27,443 bases of DNA from a virus. Both the position numbers and the translations under genes were made by a program. Positions 4,609 through 26,076 of the stretch are shown one piece after another. The DNA lies in UHGV virus genome UHGV-1837213. One strand, given 5' to 3'. The notes beneath the pieces were generated by a model that worked only from the letters and a program-made list of their open reading frames with translations, was not told the origin of the DNA and did not search any database. Every line of letters begins with the position of its first letter. Within the stretch, counting starts at the first letter, position 1.

Positions 4609-4682
4609 TGATGGAAAACTCCTTTTTCCGTTAATTCTACGCATTCATTGCGCTAATAGTAAGTATATACTTACTAATTGAG

Positions 4683-5066: not shown

Positions 5067-5067
5067 A

Positions 5068-5876: not shown

Positions 5877-5955
5877 GCTCTCTCCCTGTTGTTGTCGGTC
5901 GCTCTCATTACTGGCCAAAAACCCTTTCGACCAAAAGTAAATAATGCGACTGGCG

Positions 5956-6789
5956 TTACGCACGGCGAACAATCATACGGTTGTTGATGTAACTGACCAG
6001 CAAGCGCCAGGTACTACGAGCCACATGCACGTTTGCAGCTTTACCGGTACGGTACATGTTGGTTGTTTCACCGATGGACTCTGACAAAATGCCATCCTCT
6101 CGTGCTGCGGCTACATCATTGCCATTTGCGATCTCACACGCTTCGTTGACAACGGCAAGCATCAACGCTTCTTTGAAGTAGTCAGGGAACTCTTCAAACT
6201 TCTCCTGCGTCATCTTTTCCCAATCGACTAAATCATGCCGGTACGCTCCATCTGCTCCCCACGGAATGTCATACACATTCAGCATATTTTGAGGGCGATC
6301 GTATCGGTCAAAGTCGATACGTAGAATTTTGCGGATTGAGAACGGTAAAGTTTTAATTCGTCTGGTAGCCTCAATGAGACGCTTGCGCATTAAGCCTTCA
6401 CCATCCGACAGCAAAGTGTCCCCATTCAGCATATCGATCGCCTGCATTTGAGCATCAGCGACAGTTGCAAACGACTGTTCTGGTATCGACAGTTCAAAAC
6501 TATTCAGCAGAACATACATTTGCCGCTCTTCATGCGTCAGACCCGATGCAACAGCCTTCACAATGACGTACCGCAGATCTCGCTCTTTCTCAGAGAGCTG
6601 GTTATATTCAGCCGACACGACAACCGGAATCGACATTTGACCGCTGGTAATTTCTAGCGGCTCGCCATCAACGAGAATAGCCCCGGTGCTGTCCTTTACT
6701 GTGTAGGTAGCAGATTCGATATCCAGCACGTTGAAGGCAAATGAAAGGGAAACAGCTTCACCGCTACGATACGAGTCGATCTGCGCCAT
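5956..6789 (-). CDS. Hypothetical structural protein, 277 aa
   Basis: Long ORF in the late operon, translationally coupled to the neighbouring genes. Confidence 0.6.
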   Translation of the reverse strand: MAQIDSYRSGEAVSLSFAFNVLDIESATYTVKDSTGAILVDGEPLEITSGQMSIPVVVSAEYNQLSEKERDLRYVIVKAVASGLTHEERQMYVLLNSFELSIPEQSFATVADAQMQAIDMLNGDTLLSDGEGLMRKRLIEATRRIKTLPFSIRKILRIDFDRYDRPQNMLNVYDIPWGADGAYRHDLVDWEKMTQEKFEEFPDYFKEALMLAVVNEACEIANGNDVAAAREDGILSESIGETTNMYRTGKAANVHVARSTWRLLVSYINNRMIVRRA

Positions 6790-7223
6790 TACTCACCGCC
6801 TTGTGCTTTCAGGATGCCTTCAATCATCTCGACAATTCCTTTCGCTTTGACACCAACCTGATTACCAATCACACGTAGACCGGCAATGCCTTCATTGTCT
6901 GCAATTGACTCCAACTCTTCTCGTGTGAAAGTCTGGATCTGTTTGGCCGGTTCATCTGGTGTCCCACGTTTCATTGGCACAATGTCAGGTGCTGCTGGCT
7001 CGGTAATCAGGTCTGCGGTCAACTCGCCACGATCACTGTATGCGGCAGACGGAGAAACATTTTTGCCCTCGACTGTTGATGCTCGCATTGAGGCACAAAT
7101 CCTTTGCTGATCGATAAAAGGCAACTCCGCTACGGACACCCCGTTCTCGAACTGAACGCCGCACAACATTCCCGAATAACCGGAAAATTGCGGTTCTAAT
7201 AAAACAATTTTTGCTGGTTTCAT
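6789..7223 (-). CDS. Hypothetical structural protein, 144 aa
   Basis: ORF in the late operon; its stop overlaps the start of the downstream gene. Confidence 0.55.
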   Translation of the reverse strand: MKPAKIVLLEPQFSGYSGMLCGVQFENGVSVAELPFIDQQRICASMRASTVEGKNVSPSAAYSDRGELTADLITEPAAPDIVPMKRGTPDEPAKQIQTFTREELESIADNEGIAGLRVIGNQVGVKAKGIVEMIEGILKAQGGE

Positions 7224-7267
7224 AACGCATTCTCTCTACATGGGCGGCTTTCGCCGCCCAATATTGA

Positions 7268-8188
7268 TTATTCCTGTGCAGCAGTGACTTCTACGGTCGC
7301 TGTCGCTTTGTGGCTACCATCTTGGGTAGTAACCTCGATTGTGGCAGTACCAGCCGCAACACCAGTTACAACACCGGTTTCGCTGTCAACCGTTGCAAAC
7401 TCGGTATTTTTAGATTCCCAGGTAACGGTTTTATTTGTGGCTCCTGCCGGCTCGACATTTGCTGTCAGCTGAACAGTTTTGTTTGCCTCAACGGTTGTGC
7501 TATTTGGGTCGATTTCGACGCCGGTAACAGCCACAACAGGCGCAGTTACTTCCACCGTTGCAGTTGCCTTTTTGCTACCATCTTGGGAAACGATCTCAAT
7601 CGTCGCAGTGCCAACTTCTACACCAGTTACGTTCCCGCTCTGGTCTACCGTTGCCTTATCTTCATTTTTGGAAGACCAGGTAACAGCCTTATTCGTCGCA
7701 TTTGACGGCTGAACATTCGCTTTCAGACTGACTGATTTTCCTTTCTCAACAGAGGTTGAGTCTGGCGTTACCGTTACGGATTGAACGGCTACCGGATTTA
7801 CGGTGACTTCCACTGAAGCGGAAAGCTGGGTTTCCTGATCAGTTGCAGTAATTTTTACTTTGCCTGGGGCTACGCCAGTTACTAATCCAGTGCCGTTAAC
7901 GATTGCAATTTGGTCATTGGCTGACTTCCAGGTGAATGAACTGGCACTCTTACCCATACTAATACCTGCACTAAGTTGAACAGTTTTCCCAACCAAAACT
8001 GACGGTGAAGCCGGGGTTATGTTTACGGATTGGGAGAGGGGAACCGCCTGCAAACAAGCAGATAGCTGACTTTGTTGCCGCTCGGTTAAAGGTTCATCGG
8101 AGATAGAATTGGTAAATCCGGCACGGCACATATGCCCCGTAAAATCCGAAAATGCCTCTTCCGTAATCTTCATCTTTTGTTCTGGCAT
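7268..8188 (-). CDS. Ig-like (Big_2-type) repeat protein, probable head decoration or accessory surface protein
   Basis: Three tandem Ig-like repeats in the protein (each ending ...ATATVEVTA). GGAG RBS. Located immediately after the major capsid gene and a terminator hairpin. Confidence 0.75.
   Translation of the reverse strand: MPEQKMKITEEAFSDFTGHMCRAGFTNSISDEPLTERQQSQLSACLQAVPLSQSVNITPASPSVLVGKTVQLSAGISMGKSASSFTWKSANDQIAIVNGTGLVTGVAPGKVKITATDQETQLSASVEVTVNPVAVQSVTVTPDSTSVEKGKSVSLKANVQPSNATNKAVTWSSKNEDKATVDQSGNVTGVEVGTATIEIVSQDGSKKATATVEVTAPVVAVTGVEIDPNSTTVEANKTVQLTANVEPAGATNKTVTWESKNTEFATVDSETGVVTGVAAGTATIEVTTQDGSHKATATVEVTAAQE
7290..8020 (-). repeat. Intragenic tandem DNA repeats (about 270 bp each) encoding the Ig-like domains
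   Basis: Repeated nucleotide blocks are visible, e.g. ...ctaccatcttggg...gcagtaccag/gccaacttctacaccagttac..., matching the repeated protein domains. Confidence 0.6.
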
Positions 8189-8202
8189 TTCTCGCTCCTA
8201 CA

Positions 8203-8232
8203 AAAAGGGTGGGCGTATAGCCCACCCTTTAA
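8203..8232 (-). terminator. Rho-independent terminator/attenuator downstream of the major capsid gene
   Basis: GC-rich stem AAGGGTGGGC/GCCCACCCTT followed on the minus strand by TTTTTGTAGG. Confidence 0.6.
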
Positions 8233-8261
8233 CATAGATAACTGCTTATCTACTACACTGA

Positions 8262-9137
8262 TTAAATTTTTACATTGGTCAGTGCAGCGATAGCCTTATC
8301 GTGCTTATTCGCCAGAGAGCAGTACCACTTCACACGGGTACGTACTGCGTCTTTGTTCTGTACAGTACCAATGTTTTCAACAACGATACCTGCGTTGTCG
8401 CCGCCATACAGACCAGTAACGCCGTTCTCTTCTGACAGATGCAGGCAGTAGATGCTTGCTTTGCCAGAATCGGTCGGGATGAAGTCGTTGATAATGAACG
8501 GAACGCCGTTATGACACAGCATCGGACGACCGAAGTTCTCCATCATGATTTCAGACGGGCCTACGTTTACTGTACGCAGCAGCGCACGGTAAGCACGCAG
8601 GTGCTCTGAACGCATCATGATGCAGTCAGCACCAAGATCTTTCACCGCATCGACCAGTTCGTCGAACATGGAGAAAGTCATAGATGCACCTGCGATGTCG
8701 ATCTTCTGATCTTCATGCATCAGGCGTGGAATGCCGTCGAACGCTTTGCTGTTAGAGCTTGAGTCGCCCAAAATCAGGTTGCGACGGAACGCACGAGCCA
8801 GACCTTTAACTTTCTGGCGAACCTGAATTGCCAGTTGGTTATTAGTGTCTGACATGGTGGTTGCCAGGAATTTATCAACGTCTACGTCACCAGCCAGAAT
8901 ACGCAGTTTCGCTACATGTTCTGTGAAGGTTGCTGCACCTTCAGTGATGGTGTCGTTTACATCAATAAACGTGGCTTCGCTCAGAGTAGCCTCACGGTTG
9001 TACAGATATGCCTTTGAAGTAATTTTCATAAAAGGCAGGATGGCGAACAGGTCATCGCGATCGATAATAGTTTCGATCACACCCTGCTCAAGTTCGTTGT
9101 TAGACAGCTTTTCAGCTTCATCACGCAGTAATGGCAT
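8262..9137 (-). CDS. Major capsid protein, 291 aa
   Basis: Position after the scaffold gene and before the terminator and decoration gene; RBS AAGGGA; size and composition typical. Confidence 0.75.
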   Translation of the reverse strand: MPLLRDEAEKLSNNELEQGVIETIIDRDDLFAILPFMKITSKAYLYNREATLSEATFIDVNDTITEGAATFTEHVAKLRILAGDVDVDKFLATTMSDTNNQLAIQVRQKVKGLARAFRRNLILGDSSSNSKAFDGIPRLMHEDQKIDIAGASMTFSMFDELVDAVKDLGADCIMMRSEHLRAYRALLRTVNVGPSEIMMENFGRPMLCHNGVPFIINDFIPTDSGKASIYCLHLSEENGVTGLYGGDNAGIVVENIGTVQNKDAVRTRVKWYCSLANKHDKAIAALTNVKI

Positions 9138-9162
9138 CTATCAATTCCCTTTGATTTAGATG

Positions 9163-10050
9163 TTACTTAAGTCCAATTTTCCCCAGACCGGAGGCCAACT
9201 TATCCATAGTCGACTTGTTCTTCGGTCGGGATATTGTGTAGGTCGATTTGGAATGTGAGCCTACACCCTGCTTGGCTTCGCTACGCATCAATGCGTCAGC
9301 TTCCGGATCTGCCCGCACAATGCGTTCAATCGCGGATTCAAACGGCAACGGCTTACCTTCACCGTCAACCAGAACAGCTCGTTCTTTATGACCTGCCGGT
9401 TTGTCATAACCCACTACGCTACCGTCTTCACCCACTTCAAAATGAGAACCGTAGATCACGCGGGCTTTTGCCGGGGTCATCAGAACTTTGTCACGTAGGA
9501 AGAGAGAGTTACTGAAGGAAGCGCCCACGGTCATCTCGACTAATTGAGATTTCAGTGATGCGTTTTCACTTTCCAGTGCTGTATAACGTTCGTCACGCTG
9601 TGCCAGCTCTGCCTGGTGTGCTTCGATCATCTGTTTTTTAACAGCATCGAACTCACCACGACGCTCCAGTTCAGCTTGCTCCGCCTCACGACGTGCATTT
9701 TCTGCGGCCTGTTCAGCTTCTAAAAGCTGGCGAGCACGCGCCGGGTCGATATCACCGTACTGAGCAAGCTGATCGGCCAATGTGCGCTCTTTCTCTTTGC
9801 GCTTCATGTTCTCCTTCAGCAGTTCAGCACCAGCTTTCTTGGTTTTACGAAGTTCGGCCAGTAACTCTTCCTGAGTCATGCCAGCGTATTCGTCATCGCC
9901 CTTCGGCTGCTCTTTTTGTTCACCCTGTTTGTCAGGATCTTGTGTGCTCTGCTCATTATCAGCAGCTACACCGCCAGCGCCTCCACGCTCATGCGCTTCA
10001 GCGACATCCATCAGACCACGACGGGCCAAAAGCATTTGCCACAGATTCAT
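9163..10050 (-). CDS. Capsid scaffolding protein, 295 aa
   Basis: Highly charged, helical, coiled-coil-like sequence (AELERRGEFDAVKKQMIEAHQAELAQRDERY) between the portal and major capsid genes. Confidence 0.7.
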   Translation of the reverse strand: MNLWQMLLARRGLMDVAEAHERGGAGGVAADNEQSTQDPDKQGEQKEQPKGDDEYAGMTQEELLAELRKTKKAGAELLKENMKRKEKERTLADQLAQYGDIDPARARQLLEAEQAAENARREAEQAELERRGEFDAVKKQMIEAHQAELAQRDERYTALESENASLKSQLVEMTVGASFSNSLFLRDKVLMTPAKARVIYGSHFEVGEDGSVVGYDKPAGHKERAVLVDGEGKPLPFESAIERIVRADPEADALMRSEAKQGVGSHSKSTYTISRPKNKSTMDKLASGLGKIGLK

Positions 10051-10071
10051 AAAAATTCCTTTTGTTACTTA

Positions 10072-11646
10072 TCACTCGTTCTCTTGAGTAGATGAGTCCC
10101 CATTCCCTCGGGGTTGATCTTGCCCGCTTTCTTGGGCTGCACCACGATCATAAGTAAGTACTGACTTATTTTCAAGGGTATTTAGATCATTTTTTGGCGG
10201 AAAATTCAAGAGATCTTTATCAAATTCCTTTTTCATCGCCTCAGTAATGTTCGGGAAAATCTTCTCAATAAGCATTTCCATCTGGTGACGACGTACAGAG
10301 TCCGGTGCCTGAAGTAATGACAGTTTCTCGGCAACAGAAAATTCATCAGTAAGGCCACGAATATCGAAACTTTCTGGATACGCAATTAAAGAGTGGTCTT
10401 CGTCCAGATCTACCCCCATCCATTTCGCAACCAGTAGCATGATTTGGCGTTCAGCCCTTTCCAGACGCTCTGCTTTTGTGACAAGCAAGCTATTTACACG
10501 CTGGAAGTCATACATTTTTGCGGCACCAGATGAATTATCGATTCCCTGTGCGTTGTCCTGCTTCGTTCGCTCACCAGCTACACCAACTGAATGGTAGATT
10601 TCGTTAATCACCGTCTTAATCGTAGTGATGATCATCTGAGCTTGTTTCGGGTCTGGTGACAGATAAAACGGCTGGTTTCCACCTTCAGAATCGTAGGTGA
10701 AGACTCGCTTTGTGCCCATTTCAAGCACTTTAGTGTGGTTTTCATCACCAGGTAAAAGCGACTGTACCGGTATAGCCAACTGGCTAAATGTCTGATCCTG
10801 AATAATGGCATCAAGGTTTGACAGATAGTTTGCAACCGCACGATCAAGATAAGCGATATCATCGATCAACGATGGGCTGAAATACGGTGATTCACTTTCT
10901 CCAATACAATCAACAGGAAACACAGGAACTACGCCGAGATTATGCTCACCGCTATCCTCTAAAATAACTTTTGCCTGACGGCGACCTGCTCCACCAGCGC
11001 CCTTCTTCACTTCCTCACGGAACAGATACCACTCGTTTTGTGTCCACAGACGATAACGTTGGTATTCCTGACCTGTAGAAGTAAAAGGATCTGCGTCATC
11101 ACGAGCGACTTCCACAATTAACGCCCACAACATATTCCCGTCGTCGTCCCATGCCACATCCAGCATTTGCTGAGGTGAAATCCAGTAGGCGTAGGCGCGA
11201 GCATCTTTCTTTTTCTCGTCAGCTACTGACTCAACATCACCACTCATCGTGCTATCGACAACAACCCATATGCGACCGTAAATAGACGACTGCAAATCAA
11301 TGGCGGCCATAAATGAGTCAATAGAGGCATTCTGGCGAGTCGCACGTTTCCAGAAATTGCGGATCTGCTCTGGTGCCTCTTCGATATTTCTATGAATGTC
11401 TTCTTTAAAGAGATATTTGTTGATGAGGTTTACCACCTCACGAGTGTGGTTGAAGCGATAGGCACGCTCAACACGCTCCTTAAACTCCTGATCTCCCTCT
11501 TTAAAGTAACGAAAGATATTGTCTGTAAACCAACCACGCCCGCCAGCGTAAGTGCTGGCGAGGAAGTCCCAATGTTCTTTTTTCTTTTCGTATTCCGGGT
11601 GGCGTCGCGCCACCAGATCCTTAATTTGTTTGTCGTTCAATTCCAT
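10072..11646 (-). CDS. Portal protein, 524 aa
   Basis: Large ORF immediately downstream of the large terminase, with an acidic C-terminal tail; conserved position. Confidence 0.8.
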   Translation of the reverse strand: MELNDKQIKDLVARRHPEYEKKKEHWDFLASTYAGGRGWFTDNIFRYFKEGDQEFKERVERAYRFNHTREVVNLINKYLFKEDIHRNIEEAPEQIRNFWKRATRQNASIDSFMAAIDLQSSIYGRIWVVVDSTMSGDVESVADEKKKDARAYAYWISPQQMLDVAWDDDGNMLWALIVEVARDDADPFTSTGQEYQRYRLWTQNEWYLFREEVKKGAGGAGRRQAKVILEDSGEHNLGVVPVFPVDCIGESESPYFSPSLIDDIAYLDRAVANYLSNLDAIIQDQTFSQLAIPVQSLLPGDENHTKVLEMGTKRVFTYDSEGGNQPFYLSPDPKQAQMIITTIKTVINEIYHSVGVAGERTKQDNAQGIDNSSGAAKMYDFQRVNSLLVTKAERLERAERQIMLLVAKWMGVDLDEDHSLIAYPESFDIRGLTDEFSVAEKLSLLQAPDSVRRHQMEMLIEKIFPNITEAMKKEFDKDLLNFPPKNDLNTLENKSVLTYDRGAAQESGQDQPRGNGDSSTQENE

Positions 11647-11672
11647 TTGAATAACCTTAGATAATTACTTAC

Positions 11673-12929
11673 CTATCGAGAACCACCAAGAATAACACGG
11701 TTTTTGACTGGATACCTACGATGTACTGGATAGCCCAATGCGTCTGCACTATGCTCAATGCCACCTGTCTTATCCATATCTCGTGTTCCAGGCTTGTAGA
11801 TGACTTTTTCCAGTGAATCAATCAAATGCTTGCACTTCGGATCGATATACAGCCGGATATCTCCAGATGCGGACATCAGCATTCGGTTAACAGCATTAAC
11901 ACGATCCGCAATTGGCGGGTGCTTTTTCGAATAATCGACACGTAAGAATCCCTTCTCTTTGAATATGTCTACGTCAGACTCCCCACGAGCATGTTGGCGA
12001 TAAGCACCTGCCGGATCTGGAAATACCGTTACCTGTGATTTCCAGCGCCAGAAGCGTCTCTCAAGCTCATCACAAACTTCTGCCGTGTTAGAGGAAAAGA
12101 GCACCAATTCATCAATTGCCCATAGCTCACCATTTGGCTGAGGTTGCAAAATTACGGAAGACATCGGGTCAATGTTGAAGTCCTGCCCTACCCATATAGG
12201 CAACCGAGGGTTGAACTGAAGCGGTTTTACATGCACGTTACGATCGAACGGGTAGTAAACGCGCCCGGACATGTTCTCAAAGCTCGCCAGGTACTCCTGA
12301 GCGAACGATTTCGGGTCCATATCGTTCTTAGCAGCTTCAATTTCCGCCGTAGGCACAAACGGAGAATCGGCAGTTACAAACTGCCAGCTCTTCCACTGTC
12401 CCTTTCTTTGCAGCTCTACGTTCTGGCCTATAGTCCACAGTTTGTGAAATTCCGAGAAGCCTTTTGGCGTACCAATGATCAGTGCACCGCCGCGTGTCGA
12501 TGAAAGAGTAGGTCGTAACACCTTGTACCAGGTGTCAGCCTTCATATCCTGAAATTCATCAAGCACTACAAAATGCAACGCTACGCCGCGCAGAGTGTCA
12601 GGCTTATCAGCACCTTTGAGGGCGATCTCCGAACCGTTCTTCAACACGATTGTCATCGTGGTGTCGTTCTTTTTCCTAACCCACTTACGAGGCAGAACTT
12701 CCTGTAGATCGTCCCACAAAATCTGGCGAGCCATCTGGTAAGTAGGAGCGACATACCAGACCCTTTGCTTTTTTTCCTTTGCCGCCGCACGAATAATAGT
12801 GGAGATCGACAACCGGGATTTTCCCCAGCGTCGACCAGCACAAACAACTTTAAATCGATGCGGAGACTGGAAGACTTTCATCTGTCCAGAATGCAGTTGC
12901 ACAAGACTGAGCGAGGACGGGATTGCCAT
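11673..12929 (-). CDS. Terminase large subunit, 418 aa
   Basis: N-terminal P-loop-like motif VVCAGRRWGKS; its start overlaps the small terminase stop (TGATG); followed by the portal gene. Confidence 0.85.
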   Translation of the reverse strand: MAIPSSLSLVQLHSGQMKVFQSPHRFKVVCAGRRWGKSRLSISTIIRAAAKEKKQRVWYVAPTYQMARQILWDDLQEVLPRKWVRKKNDTTMTIVLKNGSEIALKGADKPDTLRGVALHFVVLDEFQDMKADTWYKVLRPTLSSTRGGALIIGTPKGFSEFHKLWTIGQNVELQRKGQWKSWQFVTADSPFVPTAEIEAAKNDMDPKSFAQEYLASFENMSGRVYYPFDRNVHVKPLQFNPRLPIWVGQDFNIDPMSSVILQPQPNGELWAIDELVLFSSNTAEVCDELERRFWRWKSQVTVFPDPAGAYRQHARGESDVDIFKEKGFLRVDYSKKHPPIADRVNAVNRMLMSASGDIRLYIDPKCKHLIDSLEKVIYKPGTRDMDKTGGIEHSADALGYPVHRRYPVKNRVILGGSR

Positions 12930-13561
12930 TATTCGTCCTCCCCTTCACTTCCATCATCTGTCGCATCAAATTCGCTTAGAGCTTCTTCTTCCAACGTCTC
13001 AAGCAATTCGTCATCGATGATTTCAGGCTCGTCGTCTTCCTGACGTAATTTCGCCACCTGGGAAGGCGTAAGCTCACCAAATACCAGGTTCGGAATTTCT
13101 TCCTCGTCATTTTCCGCATGATCCATGCCCAATGCTTTGGACGAAACTTCAAAGCATTTTGCAAGGGTATTACTGGCTCTCTGTAAGCTCTTGAGAGAAT
13201 CCTCAATCGCCCCTAAAGGCTTACCCTCACGTTTGGCCGTAGTGACTTCGACCATCACCATCTGCCCCAACGCATACGCCCAGCCGTCATAACGTGTACG
13301 ACGTTCTTCTATCTTTTCCGCACGGGCTTTAGCGCGAAGCTCTGCGTCAGATTTAAGAGACTCACGAACCATCTTCCCAACAGAGTCCGCGCCTTTCTCT
13401 AATCCTCGCTTTTTGAAATGTCTGGAGAGTGTTTCACGACGAATGCCGTACTCTTCCTCCAGCTTTGAGAGTGTATATTCGCCTGACGTCCATTTGGCTT
13501 CAGCTTCGGCCCACTCCGCTGGTGTCAGGCGAGTTTTTACCTCGTCTTTTTCGACCGTCAT
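12929..13561 (-). CDS. Terminase small subunit (DNA-binding), 210 aa
   Basis: HTH-like N-terminal region and strongly acidic C-terminus; translationally coupled to the large terminase. Confidence 0.7.
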   Translation of the reverse strand: MTVEKDEVKTRLTPAEWAEAEAKWTSGEYTLSKLEEEYGIRRETLSRHFKKRGLEKGADSVGKMVRESLKSDAELRAKARAEKIEERRTRYDGWAYALGQMVMVEVTTAKREGKPLGAIEDSLKSLQRASNTLAKCFEVSSKALGMDHAENDEEEIPNLVFGELTPSQVAKLRQEDDEPEIIDDELLETLEEEALSEFDATDDGSEGEDE

Positions 13562-13631
13562 AGATCCCTCTAAAACACACAGAGCGCGTCCATGCGCTCT
13601 AAAACAACTTGTTTACTGCATCTGCTAACCA

Positions 13632-13662
13632 ACTTGTTTTCTGGGGTGTTTAATTAGGTCTG
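13632..13662 (-). promoter_or_regulatory. Copy of the conserved promoter/leader element upstream of the small terminase gene
   Basis: Minus-sense CCTAATTAAACACCCCAGAAAACAAGTTGGTT, similar to the elements upstream of the small acidic genes. Confidence 0.45.
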
Positions 13663-13673
13663 GCATGTCTTAC

Positions 13674-13736
13674 GAAGCCTGCTTCCGTATATATTTAATA
13701 AGTTACTTATTATTTATATATACAGAAGCAGGTCTT
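13674..13736. promoter_or_regulatory. Large nested inverted repeat upstream of the terminase genes
   Basis: Arms of about 18 bp (GCCTGCTTCCGTATATAT / ATATATACAGAAGCAGGT) flank a central palindrome ATAAGTTACTTAT. Confidence 0.5.
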
Positions 13737-13756
13737 TAAATAAGCTCCCAGACCGA

Positions 13757-14023
13757 TTACATCACCAGTAACTTCGCTTTGGCTCGACCTAAAGTAGTTA
13801 ACCCAAGAGTTCGGCGGTGATAGCGATTGTCACTGCGTTGGCGCGTATGCCCTTTCTCCACCAGCCCCTTTTTTATCAGAGCGCGAATTGAGAACTGGAT
13901 ACTTTGCTTGGTTGTCTTGTACGGCAAAACTTCAAGCAATTCGTCCAGGTCAAGTAGATGACCTCGCTCATAACCGAGATTGAGCGTTTTGATGATGTCC
14001 TTTTGTTTATCGGTTAACGTCAT
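13757..14023 (-). CDS. Small basic protein, possible winged-helix DNA-binding protein, 88 aa
   Basis: Last gene of the coupled operon. Basic C-terminus with HTH-like segment KQSIQFSIRALIKKGLVEKG. Confidence 0.5.
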   Translation of the reverse strand: MTLTDKQKDIIKTLNLGYERGHLLDLDELLEVLPYKTTKQSIQFSIRALIKKGLVEKGHTRQRSDNRYHRRTLGLTTLGRAKAKLLVM

Positions 14024-14032
14024 GGCAAATCC

Positions 14033-14923
14033 TTATGCCGGTAAAGCAATTTCTAACGGTTTATCCAAAGGTTGTTTGTCGAATGCCAGCAGTGGCAGCG
14101 TGTCAGGCAGTCGACGACCAAAGTCAGGGTTTCGATACACACCATACAACGGAGACGTAAAGCTCAGGTTGTGAATGTCCTTGAGCAGCTTCACAATGCT
14201 GGCCTCGTCCACCAGACTGTCGGCAATGTCCTGAATCGTCGTGCCACGATTCCGCCCAGCTTTTGCCAGGGAACTGTTCTTGTGGTAGTCCGCCACCAGA
14301 TCACGCAGTGCACGGCGACGACGAGACTCGCTCATAGCGAACAACTCTTTGACGATCGCCTCGTTATCACCCGGGTCGGAGCGGAAATGGCGCTGGAACA
14401 CACGCAGTGCACTTTCATAGCTCTTCGGTCGCTCAGGGCGGATGAACTTAAACCCTGCTTTCATGGCGAAGGGATTGTATTTGCTCATCGATGACTGGAT
14501 CTCAATGATTGGCCGGTCATGCATCCTGCTAACCAGGTTAATCATTCGATAAGAGACGCCTACGCCACGATACTGAGTATCCACAACTGAGCGACTGATC
14601 ACCGCAAAGTTGTTATTCACGTACCGGCCCCAGTACTGGTTAGCCACGGTGGTATTGGTGGTTGGTTTCAACTTAGGAAACATGCGATGGCGAGGTGCCA
14701 GCAGAAGTTTCGGGTAAGCCATAACCACGACGCCCACCAGACGGTCATCAAGTTCGCAGCGATAGTAAGTTGGCGCGAAAGGTTTGCCGTCTGTTTTGTA
14801 GTGAAGCGACTTAAGAGCGTGCCAGTCCTCTACAGTTCCCTTTGTGACAGTCATTCGCTCCAGAAAGTCCAGATGACGCGGAAACTCTTCAGGGCGGTAG
14901 CGTTTGATGATGATATCTGCCAT
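14033..14923 (-). CDS. GNAT-like acyltransferase-fold protein (ORF track 14033..14932; ATG at 14923)
   Basis: Motif VDTQYRGVGVSYRMIN resembles GNAT motif A (Q/R-x-x-G-x-G/A) preceded by a hydrophobic strand VVVMAY. Start coupled to the upstream stop, with AGGTGA RBS. Fold assignment is by eye only. Confidence 0.55.
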   Translation of the reverse strand: MADIIIKRYRPEEFPRHLDFLERMTVTKGTVEDWHALKSLHYKTDGKPFAPTYYRCELDDRLVGVVVMAYPKLLLAPRHRMFPKLKPTTNTTVANQYWGRYVNNNFAVISRSVVDTQYRGVGVSYRMINLVSRMHDRPIIEIQSSMSKYNPFAMKAGFKFIRPERPKSYESALRVFQRHFRSDPGDNEAIVKELFAMSESRRRRALRDLVADYHKNSSLAKAGRNRGTTIQDIADSLVDEASIVKLLKDIHNLSFTSPLYGVYRNPDFGRRLPDTLPLLAFDKQPLDKPLEIALPA

Positions 14924-14928
14924 GTCGA

Positions 14929-15183
14929 TCACCTGCGCTCGATATTGGCATTGATGAAATCCAGGCGAAGAGACTCCATCGCCCCTACCATGACATACGG
15001 GCGCCCGCCGTTATGCCAGCAATCAAGAACACTACCGTCGTTGTTGATCATCAACAGCGCCAGGCTCTGGCTTTTTCCTTCTCTGGCGTGCTGAAGTGCT
15101 TCTTCCAGCAGGCGGATGACTTCCACGTTGTTGTTATCAGTCTCTTTCGATGGCTTCAGCTCTACGATCTTCAAATCAGGCAT
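14929..15183 (-). CDS. Hypothetical small protein, 84 aa
   Basis: ORF overlapping both neighbours within the operon. Confidence 0.5.
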   Translation of the reverse strand: MPDLKIVELKPSKETDNNNVEVIRLLEEALQHAREGKSQSLALLMINNDGSVLDCWHNGGRPYVMVGAMESLRLDFINANIERR

Positions 15184-15814
15184 ATTCCACCTTCACGCGT
15201 TCTTTGTAGTGCTTGGTGATCTGCATATCCGGGCGCAGCGCGTTCTTCAGGTCTTCGTGAGTCGTCGCCACCATTACCGTCGCACCAACCTTTCGAGCGG
15301 CACGCTGGAGGTTAGACGCCACAACCTGAGCGGTTACACGGTCTAGAACAGCGCCGAACTCGTCAGCAGCCCATACTTTAGCGCCTGACTCAATCAGTTT
15401 GGCAATCTTGAGACGATATTTCTGGCCGTCTGACATTTCAGAAGGCTTGCGAACAAACAGATATGCATCGTTCAGACCAGCCATAGATAACAACCCAAGC
15501 GCATCACTGGTCGTTTTGCCCAACTGATCGATGACGTTAACCTCATTATCGAAGGTAAAATCATCGATGGAGGCTACAGACAGCCCTTCATCCTTCATCT
15601 GTCGTTGCAACTCGCGCAGCACAACGGATTTGCCGGAACCGGATTGGCCGGTGATGTACACCACATCGCCCTGCTTCACTTCCAGCTCCAGATTGTCGTA
15701 AAGCGTCCACTCTTTTTCGTCCAGGCCAAGCCCGAACGACTCAGCGATTTCCAACGTGCGCGTGGTTTTATTTACGCGTGTCTGAAACGATACGTTGATG
15801 ATGTATTTGCTCAT
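15176..15814 (-). CDS. Soluble ABC-type ATPase, 212 aa
   Basis: Walker A GQSGSGKS, signature-like SDGQKYRL, Walker B VWAADEF, H-loop TTHED. No transmembrane domain. Start overlaps the upstream stop (ATGA). Confidence 0.8.
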   Translation of the reverse strand: MSKYIINVSFQTRVNKTTRTLEIAESFGLGLDEKEWTLYDNLELEVKQGDVVYITGQSGSGKSVVLRELQRQMKDEGLSVASIDDFTFDNEVNVIDQLGKTTSDALGLLSMAGLNDAYLFVRKPSEMSDGQKYRLKIAKLIESGAKVWAADEFGAVLDRVTAQVVASNLQRAARKVGATVMVATTHEDLKNALRPDMQITKHYKERVKVEYA

Positions 15815-16479
15815 GCAGCCATCTCCCCGGAAGAGATCTTCTCCGCATATGCCACAAATGCGTCTACCCCGCTTTCTCCCGTCATTTCTTCCATATGGGC
15901 AAGCAAATCACCAACAACAATGGCAGAGCCAGCAGGGAGCGTTTTAAAGCCCAATACGTCGACAACACGTACTTCTTCCGCTGCAACTTCACGACTGATC
16001 TCGGTGTGTTCATCCTTCTGTCGTTTAGTTTCTTCGCCAAGATCGATAACTAGCGAGTCGGTGTCCATTTCTTCTGTCATACTGCCAACGAGAACATTCA
16101 ACTCACGCTCTTCGAAGCCGAAAACCTCGATATCGTCCAGAACAAGCGACTCAAGCTCTTTCTGTAGCTTAATTGCATCGTAATCAATGCTGGCAAGTCG
16201 GTTATCTTCAAGGCGCTTTGCACGTACCTCGTCATCACTCAGATCATCACGAACAATAACCGGTACGCGCTCAAGTCCAGCAAAAATTGCAGCCTCACGG
16301 CGGCCGTGGCCAGTAATAATTACGTCGTTCTTATCGACCGTAATTGGCTGGTCAAATCCGCGCTTTTTAATGGCTGCGGCCAGATCTCTGATCTGCTGTT
16401 CATCATGCTTTTTGGCATTCATCTCATAGGGAATAAGATCTGCCGGGTCGCGATATACGATTTCAAACTTTTTGGTCAT
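15811..16479 (-). CDS. ParB-like nuclease domain protein, paralog 2 (ORF track 15811..16512; ATG at 16479)
   Basis: ParB/sulfiredoxin-type motif ITGHGRREAA; acidic C-terminal half. The start overlaps the upstream stop (TAATG) and is preceded by an AAGGAG RBS. Confidence 0.75.
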   Translation of the reverse strand: MTKKFEIVYRDPADLIPYEMNAKKHDEQQIRDLAAAIKKRGFDQPITVDKNDVIITGHGRREAAIFAGLERVPVIVRDDLSDDEVRAKRLEDNRLASIDYDAIKLQKELESLVLDDIEVFGFEERELNVLVGSMTEEMDTDSLVIDLGEETKRQKDEHTEISREVAAEEVRVVDVLGFKTLPAGSAIVVGDLLAHMEEMTGESGVDAFVAYAEKISSGEMAA

Positions 16480-17159
16480 TACATACGCTCCTTGTAGTAG
16501 TCGACCAGCCACACCAGAGCCTCACCAGCGTTCTCCATTTCATTACCGGTGTTAATAGCCTGCTCTTTGATGATGTTTTTTATGGTTTCTGCAACACGAT
16601 CTGACGCATCGAAAGTTACTTTGAAGCGCATGGTCTGATGTTCCGCACCCACACGTTCGGTTTTCTCTCGTTTGTCGGTATCGACAGGCTCATCACTACC
16701 ACGAGACAACGCCTCCAGTGCTTCAAGGTCGATTGCCGCCTCTTTTGCTAAAACCATCGAGATTTCGTCGTCATACGGAGCGATTTCAGACAGTTGATAG
16801 TCAAGTTCTGACTGAATTTCTTCAATGAAGCGTTGCAATGCGATTTGGTCGTCTTCACCGTATCGCTCGTTGTCCACCAGTGACATCTGTTTAGCTACGA
16901 CATCGCTAATTTTGCCCACAGAAAGCACCGGAACCGTTGAAATTCCTTGCTCAATAGCAGCACGCCAGCGATGTTCACCGCCGAGGATTTCAAAAAATCC
17001 ATCTTCAAGTTCACGAGCCAAAATTGGCTTAAAAAAGCCCAATTTTTCGATAGAACCTTTCAGTTTTTCAAAATTCTGCGCACCAACCGAATTGGTGTTC
17101 CAGGTATTCGGGCGAAGGTTGGCAACATCAACCTGCAAAATCGTGATTTTTACATCCAT
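16479..17159 (-). CDS. ParB-like nuclease domain protein, paralog 1 (ORF track 16479..17177)
   Basis: Motifs LRPNTWNTN and ILGGEHRWRAA are typical of ParB N-terminal domains. First gene of the operon, divergent from the helicase gene. Confidence 0.75.
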   Translation of the reverse strand: MDVKITILQVDVANLRPNTWNTNSVGAQNFEKLKGSIEKLGFFKPILARELEDGFFEILGGEHRWRAAIEQGISTVPVLSVGKISDVVAKQMSLVDNERYGEDDQIALQRFIEEIQSELDYQLSEIAPYDDEISMVLAKEAAIDLEALEALSRGSDEPVDTDKREKTERVGAEHQTMRFKVTFDASDRVAETIKNIIKEQAINTGNEMENAGEALVWLVDYYKERM

Positions 17160-17177
17160 TTTATTGCTACAATCCAC

Positions 17178-18803: not shown

Positions 18804-19082
18804 ATGAGTGAAAAGAAAACAACTTACTGTCAGGTAGCATTGTCTGATAAGGCCAATGACAAACTTGGAAAGTTTCAAGTGAAACTAAAAGAAAAAAATA
18901 TCAAAATGTCTAAGGCTGAAGTCATAAATACCATTCTGGAACAATTGACAATGGCCGACTTTGACAAGGTTATATCTTCTGTCGGGGCTTCCGCTAAGAC
19001 TCGTGAGAAAATCATGCGTATCTATGAGAACTCTAATATGACAAAGGAAGATCTCGAAACGCTATTAAGCAGATTAAAATAA
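18804..19082 (+). CDS. Hypothetical small protein, 92 aa
   Basis: ORF starting 2 nt after the helicase stop; Lys-rich. Confidence 0.55.
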   Translation: MSEKKTTYCQVALSDKANDKLGKFQVKLKEKNIKMSKAEVINTILEQLTMADFDKVISSVGASAKTREKIMRIYENSNMTKEDLETLLSRLK

Positions 19083-19577: not shown

Positions 19578-20102
19578 ATGACAACCAAAGATATTACCTA
19601 CGGTATCCAAGCTGAACTCTGGCCGCGAGATTACACTAACGTTGAAAAACTACTGATGTTCTGGCGCAGAGAACAAATTCCTGTAAGGGTCACTCTCGAA
19701 GATGGCCAGGCGTTTTGCATGTACGTTTATGGCCTCATGCCATCTCGTAACAAAGTTGACCTTTGCCCAGCCCCTTTTGACAAAGAAAATCGTATAAGGC
19801 TCCCACTTGAACGCATTAGTACAATTGAATCAGGTGTGGTTGACAGTATCGCTCACGATTTCAAAGGTCGACTAACAGTTCACCCTGATTATGTCGATAA
19901 TCGGCCATCACGCCGCGATTTTTTTGCAATTTGCAACCAAGCCTACAAAGCAAACAAATCTATAAGGGTGTACATGGCGGATGGCCGTGAAATTGAGGGG
20001 GTGTCAGCAGGCGCAGATGCTTGTCAGGTTACACTACGTGTCGAGAACGGTAGAAAAATAGTTGTTTTGTTCGATTGGGTTGAACGAATTTTGCCTTTTT
20101 GA
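19578..20102 (+). CDS. Hypothetical protein (ORF track 19500..20102; start probably ATG at 19578)
   Basis: The longer ORF overlaps the lipoprotein gene by 74 nt. The ATG at 19578 follows the lipoprotein stop. Confidence 0.5.
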   Translation: MTTKDITYGIQAELWPRDYTNVEKLLMFWRREQIPVRVTLEDGQAFCMYVYGLMPSRNKVDLCPAPFDKENRIRLPLERISTIESGVVDSIAHDFKGRLTVHPDYVDNRPSRRDFFAICNQAYKANKSIRVYMADGREIEGVSAGADACQVTLRVENGRKIVVLFDWVERILPF

Positions 20103-20414: not shown

Positions 20415-20425
20415 ATCTATAAGGT

Positions 20426-20456
20426 TAATAACCGGCTAAGTCCGGTTATTATTTTT
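20426..20456 (+). terminator. Rho-independent terminator
   Basis: Stem TAATAACCGG/CCGGTTATTA with loop CTAAGT, then TTTTT. Confidence 0.7.
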
Positions 20457-20604
20457 CACATCACTTCTTTATATCTATAAATAAAATAATCTAAATATAT
20501 ATAAGGTCGAAAGCCGGAATCGATTATTTATTTAGGGAACACCTTCGACGATCTCGCTTTTATTTCTAGGACTTTCATCCCTGCAAAAAATTTTAAAAAA
20601 ACAC

Positions 20605-20632
20605 TTGCAATCTTTTTTCGCGTATCGATAAT
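20605..20632 (+). promoter_or_regulatory. Sigma70-type promoter for the AT-rich cassette
   Basis: TTGCAA, 16-nt spacer, GATAAT, preceded by an A/T tract; located about 65 nt upstream of the ATG at 20698. Confidence 0.55.
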
Positions 20633-20697
20633 TGAACTCGTCGAAAGCGAAGACGCTAACGACAATAAATTTTAAATTTACATAAGGAAAAATTATC

Positions 20698-21348
20698 ATG
20701 GCTAACATTATCATTTCTAAAAAATCCATCATTGAAGCTGCTTCCATTGTATCCGATGAACTGCGCGAAAAAGCAGATCTGGCAACTCAAACATATAACG
20801 AACATTATAAAAATGGTACGCACACTAAAGCAGACAAAGCAAATATGCAAGCTGCGACCACTAAACTTGCTTACTTCATCAACAACGTCGTAAACGCAGT
20901 AGAAGACGAAAAATTATGCTCTGTTTTCTACTATGCGATTAAAGCAAGCAAACAAGCGCCAGAAGTATTTTTTCGTGATGCAATGACTAATAGTTATTCT
21001 CTGGAAAAACTGGTTTATCTGGTTAAATCAATTAAATCTGGTAAATGCGTTTATTCCATCGCTGATATGTCTGGATCTCGTGTATTCGCTTTAATCGATA
21101 TGATTAACGACGAGATCGACACGTTCACCAATGGCGCTGTTTTCGATTTAATGAATGAAGCTAAAAAAGCGTGTGAAATTAAATTGGACGCTGGCTATAC
21201 TCAAGCCAACCAGTTGATCAATCTTTGCGAACGTCTTGGACTTGTTGAAAAAGTCAAAGGAGCTGGGAGTGCGAAAGCTGGTACTCAGCAATATCGCTTC
21301 ATTAAAAATGATTTCTACAATTATTTAGCTGATGCTTTCAAAGCGTAA
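20698..21348 (+). CDS. Hypothetical protein, 216 aa, in low-GC cassette
   Basis: AAGGAAAAA RBS. Codon usage is AT-rich with third-position A/T preference, distinct from the flanking genes. Confidence 0.7.
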   Translation: MANIIISKKSIIEAASIVSDELREKADLATQTYNEHYKNGTHTKADKANMQAATTKLAYFINNVVNAVEDEKLCSVFYYAIKASKQAPEVFFRDAMTNSYSLEKLVYLVKSIKSGKCVYSIADMSGSRVFALIDMINDEIDTFTNGAVFDLMNEAKKACEIKLDAGYTQANQLINLCERLGLVEKVKGAGSAKAGTQQYRFIKNDFYNYLADAFKA

Positions 21349-21360
21349 TTAATGGAATCA

Positions 21361-21379
21361 AGCGCCCACTATGGGCGCT
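21361..21379 (+). repeat. 19-bp hairpin AGCGCCCACTATGGGCGCT (copy 1, intergenic)
   Basis: Perfect 8-bp stem with 3-nt loop. An identical copy at about 21857-21875 forms the cassette terminator. Confidence 0.6.
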
Positions 21380-21396
21380 TTAAAGGAGCTTTGAAA

Positions 21397-21600
21397 ATGG
21401 TCAGCTATGACAAGATCCGCGCGGAATATCGCGCAAAGTATCGCGCTTATAAACTAGAATTAATCGATGATTTAATCGCGCAACGCGACCAATTAAATTT
21501 TACGTTTTCTGATTTGCTTAACAGCAAGCGAGATTGCAAGCGCAAACGTGAATACTTACGTTTAAGCGCATTAATCGGAAAACTTCAAAATTCTATTTAA
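21397..21600 (+). CDS. Hypothetical small basic protein (ORF track 21352..21600; start probably ATG at 21397)
   Basis: The ATG at 21397 is preceded by AAAGGAG. The longer ORF would read through the hairpin. Confidence 0.5.
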   Translation: MVSYDKIRAEYRAKYRAYKLELIDDLIAQRDQLNFTFSDLLNSKRDCKRKREYLRLSALIGKLQNSI

Positions 21601-21620
21601 TTTTTTTAAGGAGCTTAATC

Positions 21621-21851
21621 ATGTTTGTTCTTATCGCTGGCGTTAACGTCCATAACGAATATTATGTTAATCGCATCGCTGGGATCGCTGGTTACGCTGG
21701 GCGCGCAGTCGAGTTTATCGATGAAACAACGCGTAAAATTGATTTATTGAGCGACCAGGAGCGAAAAAAAGCAGACGTGAACGACGCTGATATATTTTTA
21801 ATGTTAAAAGCGTTTGTAGAAATGGGATTTAAAATCAGTTTACACAAATAA
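21621..21851 (+). CDS. Hypothetical small protein, 76 aa
   Basis: Strong TAAGGAG RBS; followed immediately by a terminator. Confidence 0.6.
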   Translation: MFVLIAGVNVHNEYYVNRIAGIAGYAGRAVEFIDETTRKIDLLSDQERKKADVNDADIFLMLKAFVEMGFKISLHK

Positions 21852-21856
21852 AATCG

Positions 21857-21884
21857 AGCGCCCACTATGGGCGCTTTTTTCGTT
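21857..21884 (+). terminator. Rho-independent terminator (hairpin copy 2 plus T-run)
   Basis: AGCGCCCACTATGGGCGCT followed by TTTTTTCGTTT. Confidence 0.75.
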
Positions 21885-21901
21885 TCCAATACTTCCACAA
21901 T

Positions 21902-21930
21902 AACGCGCCATTGATGGCGCGTTTTTTATT
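21902..21930 (+). terminator. Second tandem terminator hairpin
   Basis: Stem AACGCGCCAT/ATGGCGCGTT followed by TTTTTTATT. Confidence 0.6.
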
Positions 21931-22342
21931 GTCTTTAACTCACTCCAACAACATAAAAATAAGCGCCAAAATAACGCCATAAACGCGCTTTTATATCCTT
22001 ACCAGTACATACCCATTACTTAACACATTAACGCGCTTAAAACGCGTTATATTGCGCTATAGCGTATGGTTAATCATTGGCTTTTAGTCTTGCTATGTGA
22101 TCCGCGTTTATTTGTCGGCGCGGATCGGCATTTTGTTTTGTTCCGTATCCGCTCGCGTATTATGTGCGCGTGATTTTTCACATAATCACACCACTTAATC
22201 ACGTATGTGATTATGCTACGAAAGAAATCTGGATGTCTCAGGCGACGAAAGTCATCATAATTTTCCCCGCTCGCCTGTCCGACAACCGCTGGTTGGATTC
22301 CACCAGCTTCCCGATGTTTTTTTCTACATAAAGGCGAATGCA

Positions 22343-22456
22343 GCCGTTTCCCGAAAAAATCCTGGCCGTTTCCCGTCGGCTCATGAATACGTTCCTCGCC
22401 GTTTCTGAAAATTTCCCTGCGGCAGCTGGTGGCTATAGAGAAAGGGCCGTTTCTGG
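22343..22456 (+). repeat. Iteron-like direct repeats (4 copies of GCCGTTTC(C/T)(C/T)G)
   Basis: Copies start near 22343, 22365, 22398 and 22446, all in the same orientation. Confidence 0.6.
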
Positions 22457-25944: not shown

Positions 25945-26076
25945 GCCGTTCCTGAACCGGCATCGAGCCTTTTCCCGAAACCCACACAGGCAACTCGACC
26001 GTTTCCCTGAAAACCTCCAGCCGTTCCCCGAAGGCAACCCAGCCGTTTCTGTAGCGGGATGCAACCTTTTCCCTGT
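25945..26076 (+). repeat. Iteron-like direct repeats (6 copies) with about 22-bp periodicity
   Basis: Copies of (G)CCGTT(T)CC(C)GAA-like sequence starting near 25945, 25967, 25997, 26020, 26042 and 26065. Confidence 0.6.

Follow-up and report, generated by a model that had tools for sequence, protein, structure and literature searches.

Several described systems bear on the three-gene unit that occupies positions 20605-21930 of the UHGV virus genome UHGV-1837213, a stretch of 27,443 nucleotides (referred to here as the window) that megablast placed as an SSU5-type phage-plasmid. Morons, as Juhala et al. in 2000 and Hendrix et al. are said to have described them, are promoter-gene-terminator insertions in the late operons of lambdoid phages. 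The C1-controlled operons of P1 are repressor-controlled lytic operons of a plasmid prophage, and the repetitive extragenic palindrome (REP) in malE-malF and the stem-loop in papB-papA are intercistronic hairpins that act as stabilisers or attenuators. The closest published parallel to the unit is provided by the PeSL (promoter-early stem-loop) cassettes of T4-type phages, short regulatory motifs with a stem-loop that flank small ORFans; gene gain, loss and replacement map to these repeats, whose stem-loops also serve as terminators (Arbiol et al. 2010, PMC2839356; Comeau et al. 2014, PMC4122927). An earlier reading of the window (the sequence-only reading) had taken the unit for a moron-like cassette. 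On balance, and with some reserve, we favour a different interpretation, in which the unit is an ancient, family-specific core operon of SSU5/pHCM2/pMT1-type phage-plasmids, repressed in lysogeny and built for high output.

The upstream terminator, sigma70-like promoter, three genes, twice-present hairpin and second downstream terminator that had been described for the unit were all found in place, the terminators and promoter by scan and the promoter with the further backing of conservation. The features, all on the plus strand, are as follows:

20426-20456, plus strand: T0, an intrinsic terminator closing the helicase-to-FljA-like operon (10-bp stem with 4 GC pairs at 20426-20451, then a T-run; -12.6 kcal/mol)
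20496-20507, plus strand: upstream block 0, ATATATAAGGT, at least 95% conserved, with a related copy, TCTATAAGGT, at 20416-20425
20526-20548, plus strand: upstream block A, ATTTATTTAGGGAACACCTTCGA, centred at about -106 from the predicted transcription start
20558-20578, plus strand: upstream block B, TTTTATTTCTAGGACTTTCAT, centred at about -71
20585-20632, plus strand: predicted promoter, with an UP-like A/T tract (20585-20601), a -35 hexamer TTGCAA (20605-20610), a 16-nt spacer and a -10 hexamer GATAAT (20627-20632)
20640-20663, plus strand: predicted two-tier stem-loop at the 5' end of the mRNA, GTCG-AA-AGCG-AAGA-CGCT-AA-CGAC
20698-21348, plus strand: g1, 216 amino acids (aa), phrog_1513
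21361-21379, plus strand: HP1, the internal hairpin copy, followed by TTTAAAGGAG, a T-run that leads into the g2 ribosome-binding site (-15.6 kcal/mol)
21397-21600, plus strand: g2, 67 aa, phrog_6145
21621-21851, plus strand: g3, 76 aa, phrog_1585
21857-21881, plus strand: HP2, the terminal hairpin copy, which with its T6 forms an intrinsic terminator (stem in the scan 21856-21876)
21902-21929, plus strand: T2, a second terminator, AACGCGCCATTGATGGCGCGTT with T6 (scan 21902-21923; -16.8 kcal/mol)

The start of g2 was corrected to 21397, which gives the 67-aa product that matches all homologues; the ATG at 21352 overlaps the hairpin. In T0, HP2 and T2 a GC-rich stem-loop is followed by at least five U, as in Rho-independent terminators, whereas in HP1 the U-tract is interrupted (TTT then AAAGG). 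A scan of the window against Rfam returned no family.

The unit is also distinct in composition. In windowed and gene-by-gene counts the GC content (the fraction of guanine plus cytosine) was 0.376 for g1, 0.382 for g2 and 0.394 for g3, against 0.471 +- 0.037 in the 33 other open reading frames (ORFs) of the window that were taken as genes (z about -2.1 to -2.6), and the GC at third codon positions (GC3) of g1 was 0.336, against 0.487 +- 0.060 elsewhere. No run below 0.40 GC in the window is longer than the one at 20.2-22.2 kb, and the intergenic DNA at 20420-20697 has a GC of 0.306. Taken with the terminators and the promoter, these values bear out the proposal of an autonomous, compositionally distinct transcription unit. 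The codon preference also differs from that of the neighbouring genes, as had been claimed, and the direction of the difference in g1 is towards high adaptation. Calculated with weights after Sharp & Li 1987, the codon adaptation index (CAI) of g1 is 0.444, which ranks fourth among 36 ORFs and lies in the range of capsid and tail genes; the values for the small genes are lower (0.24 for g2 and 0.30 for g3). Thus, the codon usage of g1 fits selection for expression at least as well as it fits a foreign origin.

The distribution of the genes separates g1 from g2 and g3. The nearest relative of the window is Escherichia phage CMS-2020a (97-98% identity by megablast), followed by phage Cyrano (pLF82) and PhiR41_1 (91-97%) and by Salmonella phage SSU5 and Klebsiella elements (about 82%). 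The comparison covered 94 related loci; 81 distinct regions entered the upstream alignment and 84 non-redundant regions the count of hairpins. In 94 of 94 loci g1 was present together with its promoter region, its position was kept, and its GC was 0.37-0.42 against 0.40-0.51 in the flanks; even in a high-GC relative (L099) the gene has 0.414 against 0.545. A tblastn search of PLSDB recovered g1 in 815 plasmids, including Yersinia pestis pMT1 and Salmonella Typhi pHCM2, and the numbers per genus follow those of the SSU5-type major capsid protein:

Klebsiella: g1 346, major capsid 340
Escherichia: g1 217, major capsid 200
Enterobacter: g1 91, major capsid 91
Yersinia: g1 62, major capsid 62
Salmonella: g1 49, major capsid 49
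Citrobacter: g1 25, major capsid 25

Among complete E. coli genomes, 241 of 5,426 (4.4%) carried g1, in every case on a plasmid and never on the chromosome. The clustered homologues of g1 number 102, and nearly all the full-length ones lie on contigs that measure about 105-112 kb. When 1.8 billion representatives were searched exhaustively with a profile, only 23 g1 proteins were obtained, all of one family, and all three genes are restricted to the SSU5-type element family. The order helicase, further genes, FljA-like gene, gap, g1, small gene and convergent 160-aa gene is kept in pMT1, pHCM2 and the other elements examined, and the synteny extends to a Klebsiella lineage with 50% g1 identity and to a Pectobacterium plasmid with 39%. 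Two homologues of about 30% identity, seen only by the exhaustive search, are preceded by two ParB genes, a divergent helicase and a gap of 400-500 bp; at one of these loci there are no genes at all between helicase and g1. A search for their loci among viral contigs gave nothing, and they were recovered from other contigs that encode the proteins. These comparisons identify g1 as the anchored element and its upstream neighbours as the variable part. The sequence of g1 has itself been held under strong purifying selection (dN/dS, or omega, of 0.05-0.10 at dS 1-2.5).

The two remote loci stand on very divergent SSU5-like elements, L100 (Logan SRR21979619, from a host of about 33% GC) and L099 (SRR22361136, from a host of about 54% GC), both of which retain the frame of ParB-ParB, divergent helicase and g1 together with the upstream blocks. 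They define a family much wider than the phage-plasmids of enterobacteria.

The sequence-only reading held that the unit is expressed independently, a prediction on which published data bear directly. Misson et al. (PMC9928086) analysed by RNA-seq E. coli LF82 lysogenic for Cyrano, a single lysogen of one relative, in which CYRAN_113 corresponds to g1 and CYRAN_112 to g3 behind the same promoter, and g2 is absent. Of the prophage genes that the authors list for expression 5-fold or more above local background, 14 belong to Cyrano, and CYRAN_113 and CYRAN_112 are not among them (PMC9928086). In lysogeny broth (LB) the values for CYRAN_113 in the S1 Table were 2.78 and 2.32 log2(FPKM+5), where FPKM is fragments per kilobase per million and 2.32 equals zero, in three further conditions they were 2.8-3.9, and those of CYRAN_112 were similar (PMC9928086). 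In normalised counts the two genes reached 5.9 and 5.0, respectively, where the median of the background is 9.8 and the cutoff for a moron 49 (PMC9928086). Both genes are therefore at the floor of the measurement, contrary to the prediction. The upstream operon CYRAN_118-114 stands at 7-9 log2(FPKM+5) (PMC9928086) and g1 is near the floor, and thus T0 corresponds to a drop of about 35-fold in vivo between CYRAN_114 and CYRAN_113. T0 is conserved in relatives and insulates the unit from the upstream operon. The expression of g1 and g3 places them among the lytic genes, and this silence, in one strain, is the strongest evidence against a moron.

It could be argued that the unit is nevertheless a moron, that is, a horizontally acquired, independently expressed accessory module for exclusion, abortive infection or toxin-antitoxin activity. 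Like morons, the unit combines an autonomous promoter and terminator with small genes and a deviant, low-GC composition; g2 and g3 are variably present and, in that respect, are absent from close relatives as moron genes are. A Klebsiella SSU5-like plasmid, taken whole, lowers the plating efficiency of lytic phage 10- to 100-fold (PMC8969562), and this resistance, for which no gene was assigned, may be counted on the same side. In contrast to morons, however, the unit is silent in the prophage, neither g1 nor g3 being transcribed from their own promoter in repressed LF82/Cyrano or appearing in the published moron list, and, compared with the known relatives, g1 is no insertion. Throughout its family, down to homologues of about 30% identity, g1 is present and syntenic; unrelated phages do not share it, and it is a core gene under strong purifying selection; all three genes were found in the SSU5-type family alone. 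The sequence-only reading had itself set the presence of the cassette in relatives as a test, and g1 proved to be present with the same low GC in all of them, which is half of what that reading had named as telling against it. An accessory, swappable character belongs to g2 and g3 and not to g1. The defensive roles fared no better, as searches against PADLOC and toxin-antitoxin families returned no match for the three proteins, and such roles fit poorly with silence in the lysogen. Of the features of toxin-antitoxin modules, neither homology nor constitutive expression was seen, and since g1 stands alone in 13 of 94 loci, and has differing partners elsewhere, there is no obligate pair with a small gene. 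For g1 the moron is already largely refuted, and for the unit we regard it as very improbable.

A second explanation for the silence is that the AT-rich island is silenced by host H-NS and forms a conditional lysogenic-conversion module, expressed for example inside macrophages, rather than a lytic operon. The regulatory DNA, at 0.306 GC, contains A-tracts, AT-richness has been kept in every lineage without amelioration, and the context of the -10 hexamer, TCGATAATT, appears similar to the high-affinity H-NS motif TCGATAAATT, a motif that Lang et al. in 2007 are said to have reported. In macrophages at 6 h both genes rise to about 5-5.6, an apparent increase of about 10-fold, together with the other silent lytic-type genes CYRAN_75, 90, 91 and 119 (PMC9928086). 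That rise, however, is common to many silent lytic-type genes and may in part be read-through from the induced upstream operon. A neighbouring gene at 18804-19082, the homologue of CYRAN_117, is just as rich in AT and yet shows good expression in the lysogen. The private conserved blocks upstream of g1 point to a specific regulator, and silencing by H-NS is in any case compatible with a lytic role. We therefore consider a conversion module unlikely.

The favoured interpretation, a core operon repressed in lysogeny, draws on the conservation of the DNA upstream of g1. The promoter hexamers match at 9 of 12 positions, and scanning the window gave 19 such sites against 13.7 +- 4.4 expected; as the match in itself is not unusual, the promoter call rests on conservation. 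Over the 81 distinct upstream regions, AAAAA, CTTG (at the -35) and TCGATAATT (over the -10) are at least 95% conserved, as are T0, the three blocks (with the motifs ATATATAAGG, ATTTATTTAGG-AACACCTTCGA and TTATTTCTA-GACTTT), the A-tract, the leader segment TCGAAAGC...GCTAACGA and the Shine-Dalgarno sequence. The Pectobacterium plasmid has a promoter of like layout (TTGAAA-16-TATTAT). These features make up a conserved sigma70-type promoter, for which the transcription start is a predicted one. Blocks A and B are recognisable from E. coli through Pectobacterium to the lineages with about 30% identical g1, and the remote lineage L099 has the block 0 motif ATATATAAGG in three copies. A search of the entire 108-kb Cyrano genome, by shared 11-mers and by mismatch scans with the promoter blocks, revealed no phage-wide operator. 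Indeed the three blocks and the extended -10 are each unique to the g1 locus in that genome, and the promoter could thus not be linked to such an operator. Reading the promoter region by eye revealed no LexA box. Sites for Fis at rrnB-like positions were also considered; the spacing is similar (-71, -106 and -138), but no Fis consensus was recognisable. The P1 operons resemble the unit in that a strong promoter is silent in the plasmid-prophage state, with products that, in the unit, would act after induction or infection; unlike P1, no operator common to other promoters was found in Cyrano, and there is no homology to P1 genes.

The predicted leader stem-loop starts about 7 nt past the -10, and of 11 relatives that were folded, 9 gave the same structure, at -5 to -10 kcal/mol. 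Across 26 distinct leaders, pairing was kept in 94% of cells, compared with 12-40% in slid controls, and the closing pair is A-U in 20 sequences, G-C in 6 and unpaired in none. Five of the eight pairs never vary, and support for the structure is thus moderate.

The proteins proved as hard to recognise as the sequence-only reading had found them. Searches of g1, g2 and g3 against Pfam, NCBIfam and PADLOC gave nothing above threshold, PHROGs returned uninformative families only, and sequence searches of the Protein Data Bank (PDB), run both from single sequences and from family profiles extended to remote homologues, were empty or insignificant. The g1 family profile had no match to PDB sequences even at E up to 10, and Pfam scans of its remote homologues were also empty. 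The structural model of g1 (pLDDT 77.5) is more informative. Residues 8-114 are modelled as helical and comprise a long hairpin of helices plus three more helices, residues 115-128 form a linker of low confidence, and the C-terminal 87 residues (130-216) adopt a winged helix with the canonical order H1-S1-H2-H3-S2-S3 and a final helix. The fold matches are generic (ArsR/SmtB, MarR, PadR and TubR-type), and Pfam, NCBIfam and PDB sequence searches did not place g1 in any of these families. As in those proteins the putative recognition helix and wing hold the most conserved residues; in an alignment reaching down to 21% identity, the invariant D164, T168, Q169 and G181 gather where the putative recognition helix begins, and Q172 is nearly invariant. 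Unlike them, g1 has its winged helix C-terminal to a 115-residue helical domain that has no specific match, and the winged helix is acidic, with an isoelectric point (pI) of 4.96. The invariant Thr and Gln would favour binding to DNA and the pI urges caution; as the domain is acidic, binding to nucleic acid is likely but not assured. A sigma-appropriation pair of the T4 MotA/AsiA type, formed by g1 and g2, was examined and set aside: the domain layout is similar, but structural and sequence support is absent.

The same features raise the possibility that g1 binds a cis-acting site for DNA transactions (a lytic origin, a centromere or a packaging site) on the flanking repeats, and does not regulate transcription, in the manner of repressed lytic replicons such as P1 kilA-repL. 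In all lineages g1 is anchored beside helicase and ParB-like genes, TATAAGG-type direct repeats and conserved blocks flank it upstream, and downstream lies about 540 bp of non-coding DNA with GCCGTTTCY iterons, a motif that also occurs in remote lineages. The gene is codon-adapted for abundance and silent in lysogeny, and TubR is among its fold matches. It should be emphasized, however, that these winged-helix matches are generic, that Pfam, NCBIfam and PDB sequence searches revealed no homology of g1 to Rep, ParB, ParR, TubR or terminase small-subunit families, that plasmid RepA, ParA and terminase are encoded elsewhere in Cyrano, and that the iterons may belong to another protein. A role of g1 confined to such a site is, in our view, improbable.

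The second distinctive property of the locus is its hairpin. The sequence-only reading had pointed to an identical hairpin at 21361 and 21857, and this is indeed an exact 19-nt repeat, AGCGCCCACTATGGGCGCT, of which the window contains exactly two copies (21361-21379 and 21857-21875) when none is expected by chance; the duplication is meaningful. A copy lies 15-25 nt, usually 17 nt, past the g1 stop codon in nearly all SSU5-type loci. In the 84 non-redundant regions the stem GCGCCCA/TGGGCGC is perfect in 161 of 163 copies, and the 3-nt loop is CTA in 130 copies, TAG in 19 and another sequence in 12. What follows a copy differs with its position. Joints of the HP1 type consist of the hairpin and TTTAAAGG, an interrupted T-run into AAGGAG that never reaches T5 or longer, whereas the terminal type in the window is the hairpin and T6, and T5-7 stands behind the array-closing copy (the final one, or the final two where a pair is in tandem) in 84 of 84 regions. 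At internal joints the hairpin precedes TTTAAGGAGCTT, the ribosome-binding site, with no promoter, and the single promoter at 20605-20632 serves the unit. T2 is a diverged member of the same hairpin family; its place is taken by a third perfect copy in L094-L097, and it resembles the g1 terminator of the remote lineage L099, where an ACGCGCC/GGCGCGT hairpin directly follows g1.

What lies between the hairpins varies. Counting the window, and leaving out L013, the Pectobacterium plasmid, whose terminator is of another kind, the contents of the slot behind g1 fall into classes that sum to 95:

g2 only: 29 loci
g3 or g3' only: 26 loci
g2 with g3 or g3': 20 loci
g1 alone, with one hairpin serving as terminator: 13 loci
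a diverged g2-type ORF, in the lineage with 62% g1 identity: 5 loci
g3'-hairpin-g3 in tandem, with three hairpins: 2 loci

The hairpin coincides with every cassette boundary, and g2 and g3 have been gained, lost and duplicated as hairpin-bounded units. In Cyrano, which lacks g2, alignment of the relatives places the gap exactly from HP1 to the ribosome-binding site of g3, and SSU5 lacks g3. On this comparative evidence it is only g2 and g3 that are accessory, swappable cassettes, and recombination at the joints is likewise deduced from comparative data. The genus totals had suggested a minimum of one small gene in each element, an idea ruled out by the 13 of 94 loci in which g1 is alone.

As in PeSL, then, a repeated stem-loop lies at the borders of variable ORFs. 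There are, however, clear differences. Each PeSL motif carries a sigma70-like early promoter, whereas the joints of the unit, a hairpin and a Shine-Dalgarno sequence, have none, and all cassettes depend on one promoter behind one conserved core gene. There is one array per genome with one to three copies, compared with dozens of PeSL across hyperplastic regions, and the element is a temperate phage-plasmid, not a T4-type phage. HP1 may also be likened to the malE-malF REP and the papB-papA stem-loop, being a stable GC-rich hairpin that lacks a full U-tract, follows the first cistron and might bring about differential expression; it differs from them in that the same sequence is reused as a terminator by means of T6 and in that the sequence itself is invariant.

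This invariance is striking because dS is at least 1, and therefore requires either constraint or homogenisation; the hairpin is unchanged in the lineage with 49% g1 identity although the T0 stem drifted there to another sequence, as it did in the 39% lineage. A search of 2.9 million viral contigs recovered the exact 19-mer in 94 stretches, 92 of them at the g1 locus. It could be argued, accordingly, that the invariant palindrome AGCGCCCA-NNN-TGGGCGCT is a sequence-specific site for cassette exchange, or a DNA or RNA site for a protein of the phage-plasmid, possibly a dimeric g1, and that together with the sites upstream of g1 and the array it constitutes a dedicated effector-gene system. Such a system would capture interchangeable effector genes and express them differentially early in infection, as an integrase-less, single-promoter analogue of a cassette array. 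We leave this reading open because the stem is invariant despite saturated synonymous divergence, because inversion of the loop is tolerated, as expected of a dyad-symmetric duplex site, and because the hairpin is nearly exclusive to g1 loci; we nonetheless assign it a small chance. The hairpin was also compared with the attC sites of integrons, an identity rejected because 19 nt are too short and there is no integrase context.

The change of the loop from CTA to its reverse complement TAG, in 19 of 161 copies, occurs at both positions and in several lineages (L003, L004, L011, L021, L023, L031 and others). Its form suggests inversion of the palindrome, through strand-switch or arm-recombination events at an extruded hairpin. 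The two occurrences of the 19-mer away from g1 (12915-12933 in L103, and on the minus strand of L190) follow a 65-aa gene that ends a tail- or baseplate-like block; these contigs have neither g1 nor the convergent 160-aa gene, and the hairpin there is a terminator.

The cassette products are small. The 67-aa g2 is basic (pI 9.7), predicted to be helical and under purifying selection (omega about 0.07), and its only profile similarity, to DUF6899, is below threshold. It occurs in 517 plasmids and is absent from Cyrano and many others; the 62% lineage has a version of 32% identity. The label 'MIT family metal ion transporter / CorA' attached to g2 (phrog_6145, SSU5_119) has no such similarity behind it. 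As g2 is a basic, soluble, helical peptide, we regard the label as a propagated mis-annotation that should be dropped. The 76-aa g3 has a low-confidence model with a ferredoxin-like beta-alpha-beta-beta-alpha-beta fold to which ACT domains are closest, and a weak NCBIfam match to an ACT protein. It occurs in 368 plasmids when g3', the form of pMT1 and pHCM2 with below 60% identity, is counted.

Placed together, these observations can be accommodated by a lysogeny-repressed core operon that would work as follows. In lysogeny the promoter would be under active repression, whether from the element's own repressor, from H-NS or from some other factor bound at the private upstream blocks. Infection or induction would switch the operon on early and lead to strong expression, and the stem-loop at the 5' end would stabilise the mRNA on derepression. 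Because HP1 lacks a full U-tract, it may pass part of the transcription and protect the 3' end of the g1 segment, so that g1 would be made in excess over g2 and g3; HP1 is probably a 3' stabiliser or attenuator. HP2 and T2 would halt transcription ahead of the convergent gene. The abundant two-domain g1 would recognise nucleic acid through its winged helix, most likely at the conserved DNA blocks beside its own gene, and might, at an early stage, regulate or organise the lytic or establishment programme, with the basic helical g2 and the ACT-like g3 as interchangeable modulators. The identical joints of hairpin and Shine-Dalgarno sequence would provide short homologies for the deletion, duplication and exchange of cassettes between co-resident phage-plasmids.

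Several points weigh against this interpretation. The assignment of g1 as early or lytic, and with it a role as regulator or organiser, derives only from silence in the lysogen and co-variation with other silent genes, and that silence comes from a single lysogen whose element lacks g2; the published literature contains no lytic-cycle transcriptomics or functional data for the locus in SSU5, pHCM2 or the Klebsiella elements. The combination of high CAI and low GC3 is suggestive of high expression without proving it, and the leader covariation, based on few independent events, gives moderate support. The g1 model is of moderate confidence, structure searches including BFVD returned no full-length structural relative, and the acidic winged helix could serve protein-protein contacts. 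Finally, frequent recombination among phage-plasmids could explain the invariance of the hairpin without any function.

SSU5-type phage-plasmids are common in clinical Enterobacteriaceae and carry resistance genes, and their regulatory circuitry is essentially uncharted. This study removes the label of moron or defence cassette from a distinctive locus of the family and replaces it by the picture of a lysogeny-silent core operon. What is new is an orphan winged-helix family and a promoter-less, hairpin-jointed cassette array, and the unit offers a compact example of hairpin-mediated cassette shuffling outside T4-type phages. Should g1 be an early regulator or an organiser of cis-acting sites, it would offer a point of entry to the family's lysis-lysogeny or replication switch.

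The neighbourhood of the unit is arranged in two blocks:

117-17177, minus strand: virion and ParB-like genes
from 17242, plus strand: a block whose first gene encodes a DEAD-box helicase

The helicase is followed by genes for a 92-aa protein, a lipoprotein, the FljA-like protein and a small secreted protein, and then by the three-gene unit. The FljA-like gene (19578-20102), directly upstream, matches Pfam Flag1_repress at E 2.5e-84 and has a weak Hfq-like match; it is syntenic in most relatives, and the lysogen expresses the Cyrano homologue. FljA is a translational repressor that binds mRNA leaders, and it is conceivable that the FljA-like protein has a link to the conserved leader of g1 or to the hairpin RNA. 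The 92-aa gene (18804-19082), at 0.358 GC, is as AT-rich as the unit. Unlike the unit, it has a Cyrano homologue (CYRAN_117) whose expression in the lysogen reaches 12-fold over background, and it is thus the gene of this region that fits the expression definition of a moron. By eye, its product might be a small DNA-binding protein.

Downstream, the non-coding DNA of about 540 bp between the terminators and the convergent gene contains four exact, iteron-like direct copies of GCCGTTTCY (22343, 22365, 22398 and 22446, spanning 22343-22454), and the repeats form another cluster, with a period of 22 bp, at 25945-26050, within a doubtful ORF at a GC peak. Allowing up to one mismatch, the motif has 29 matches against 11.7 +- 3.4 expected, and it is also seen at the homologous place in remote lineages. 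These repeats may mark an origin, a centromere or a pac-type site. Just past the terminators, 21896-22054 contains three direct copies of CA(C/A)A(A/T)TAACGCGC and several inverted repeats of the AACGCG type, and these repeats are partly conserved in SSU5, pMT1 and pHCM2.

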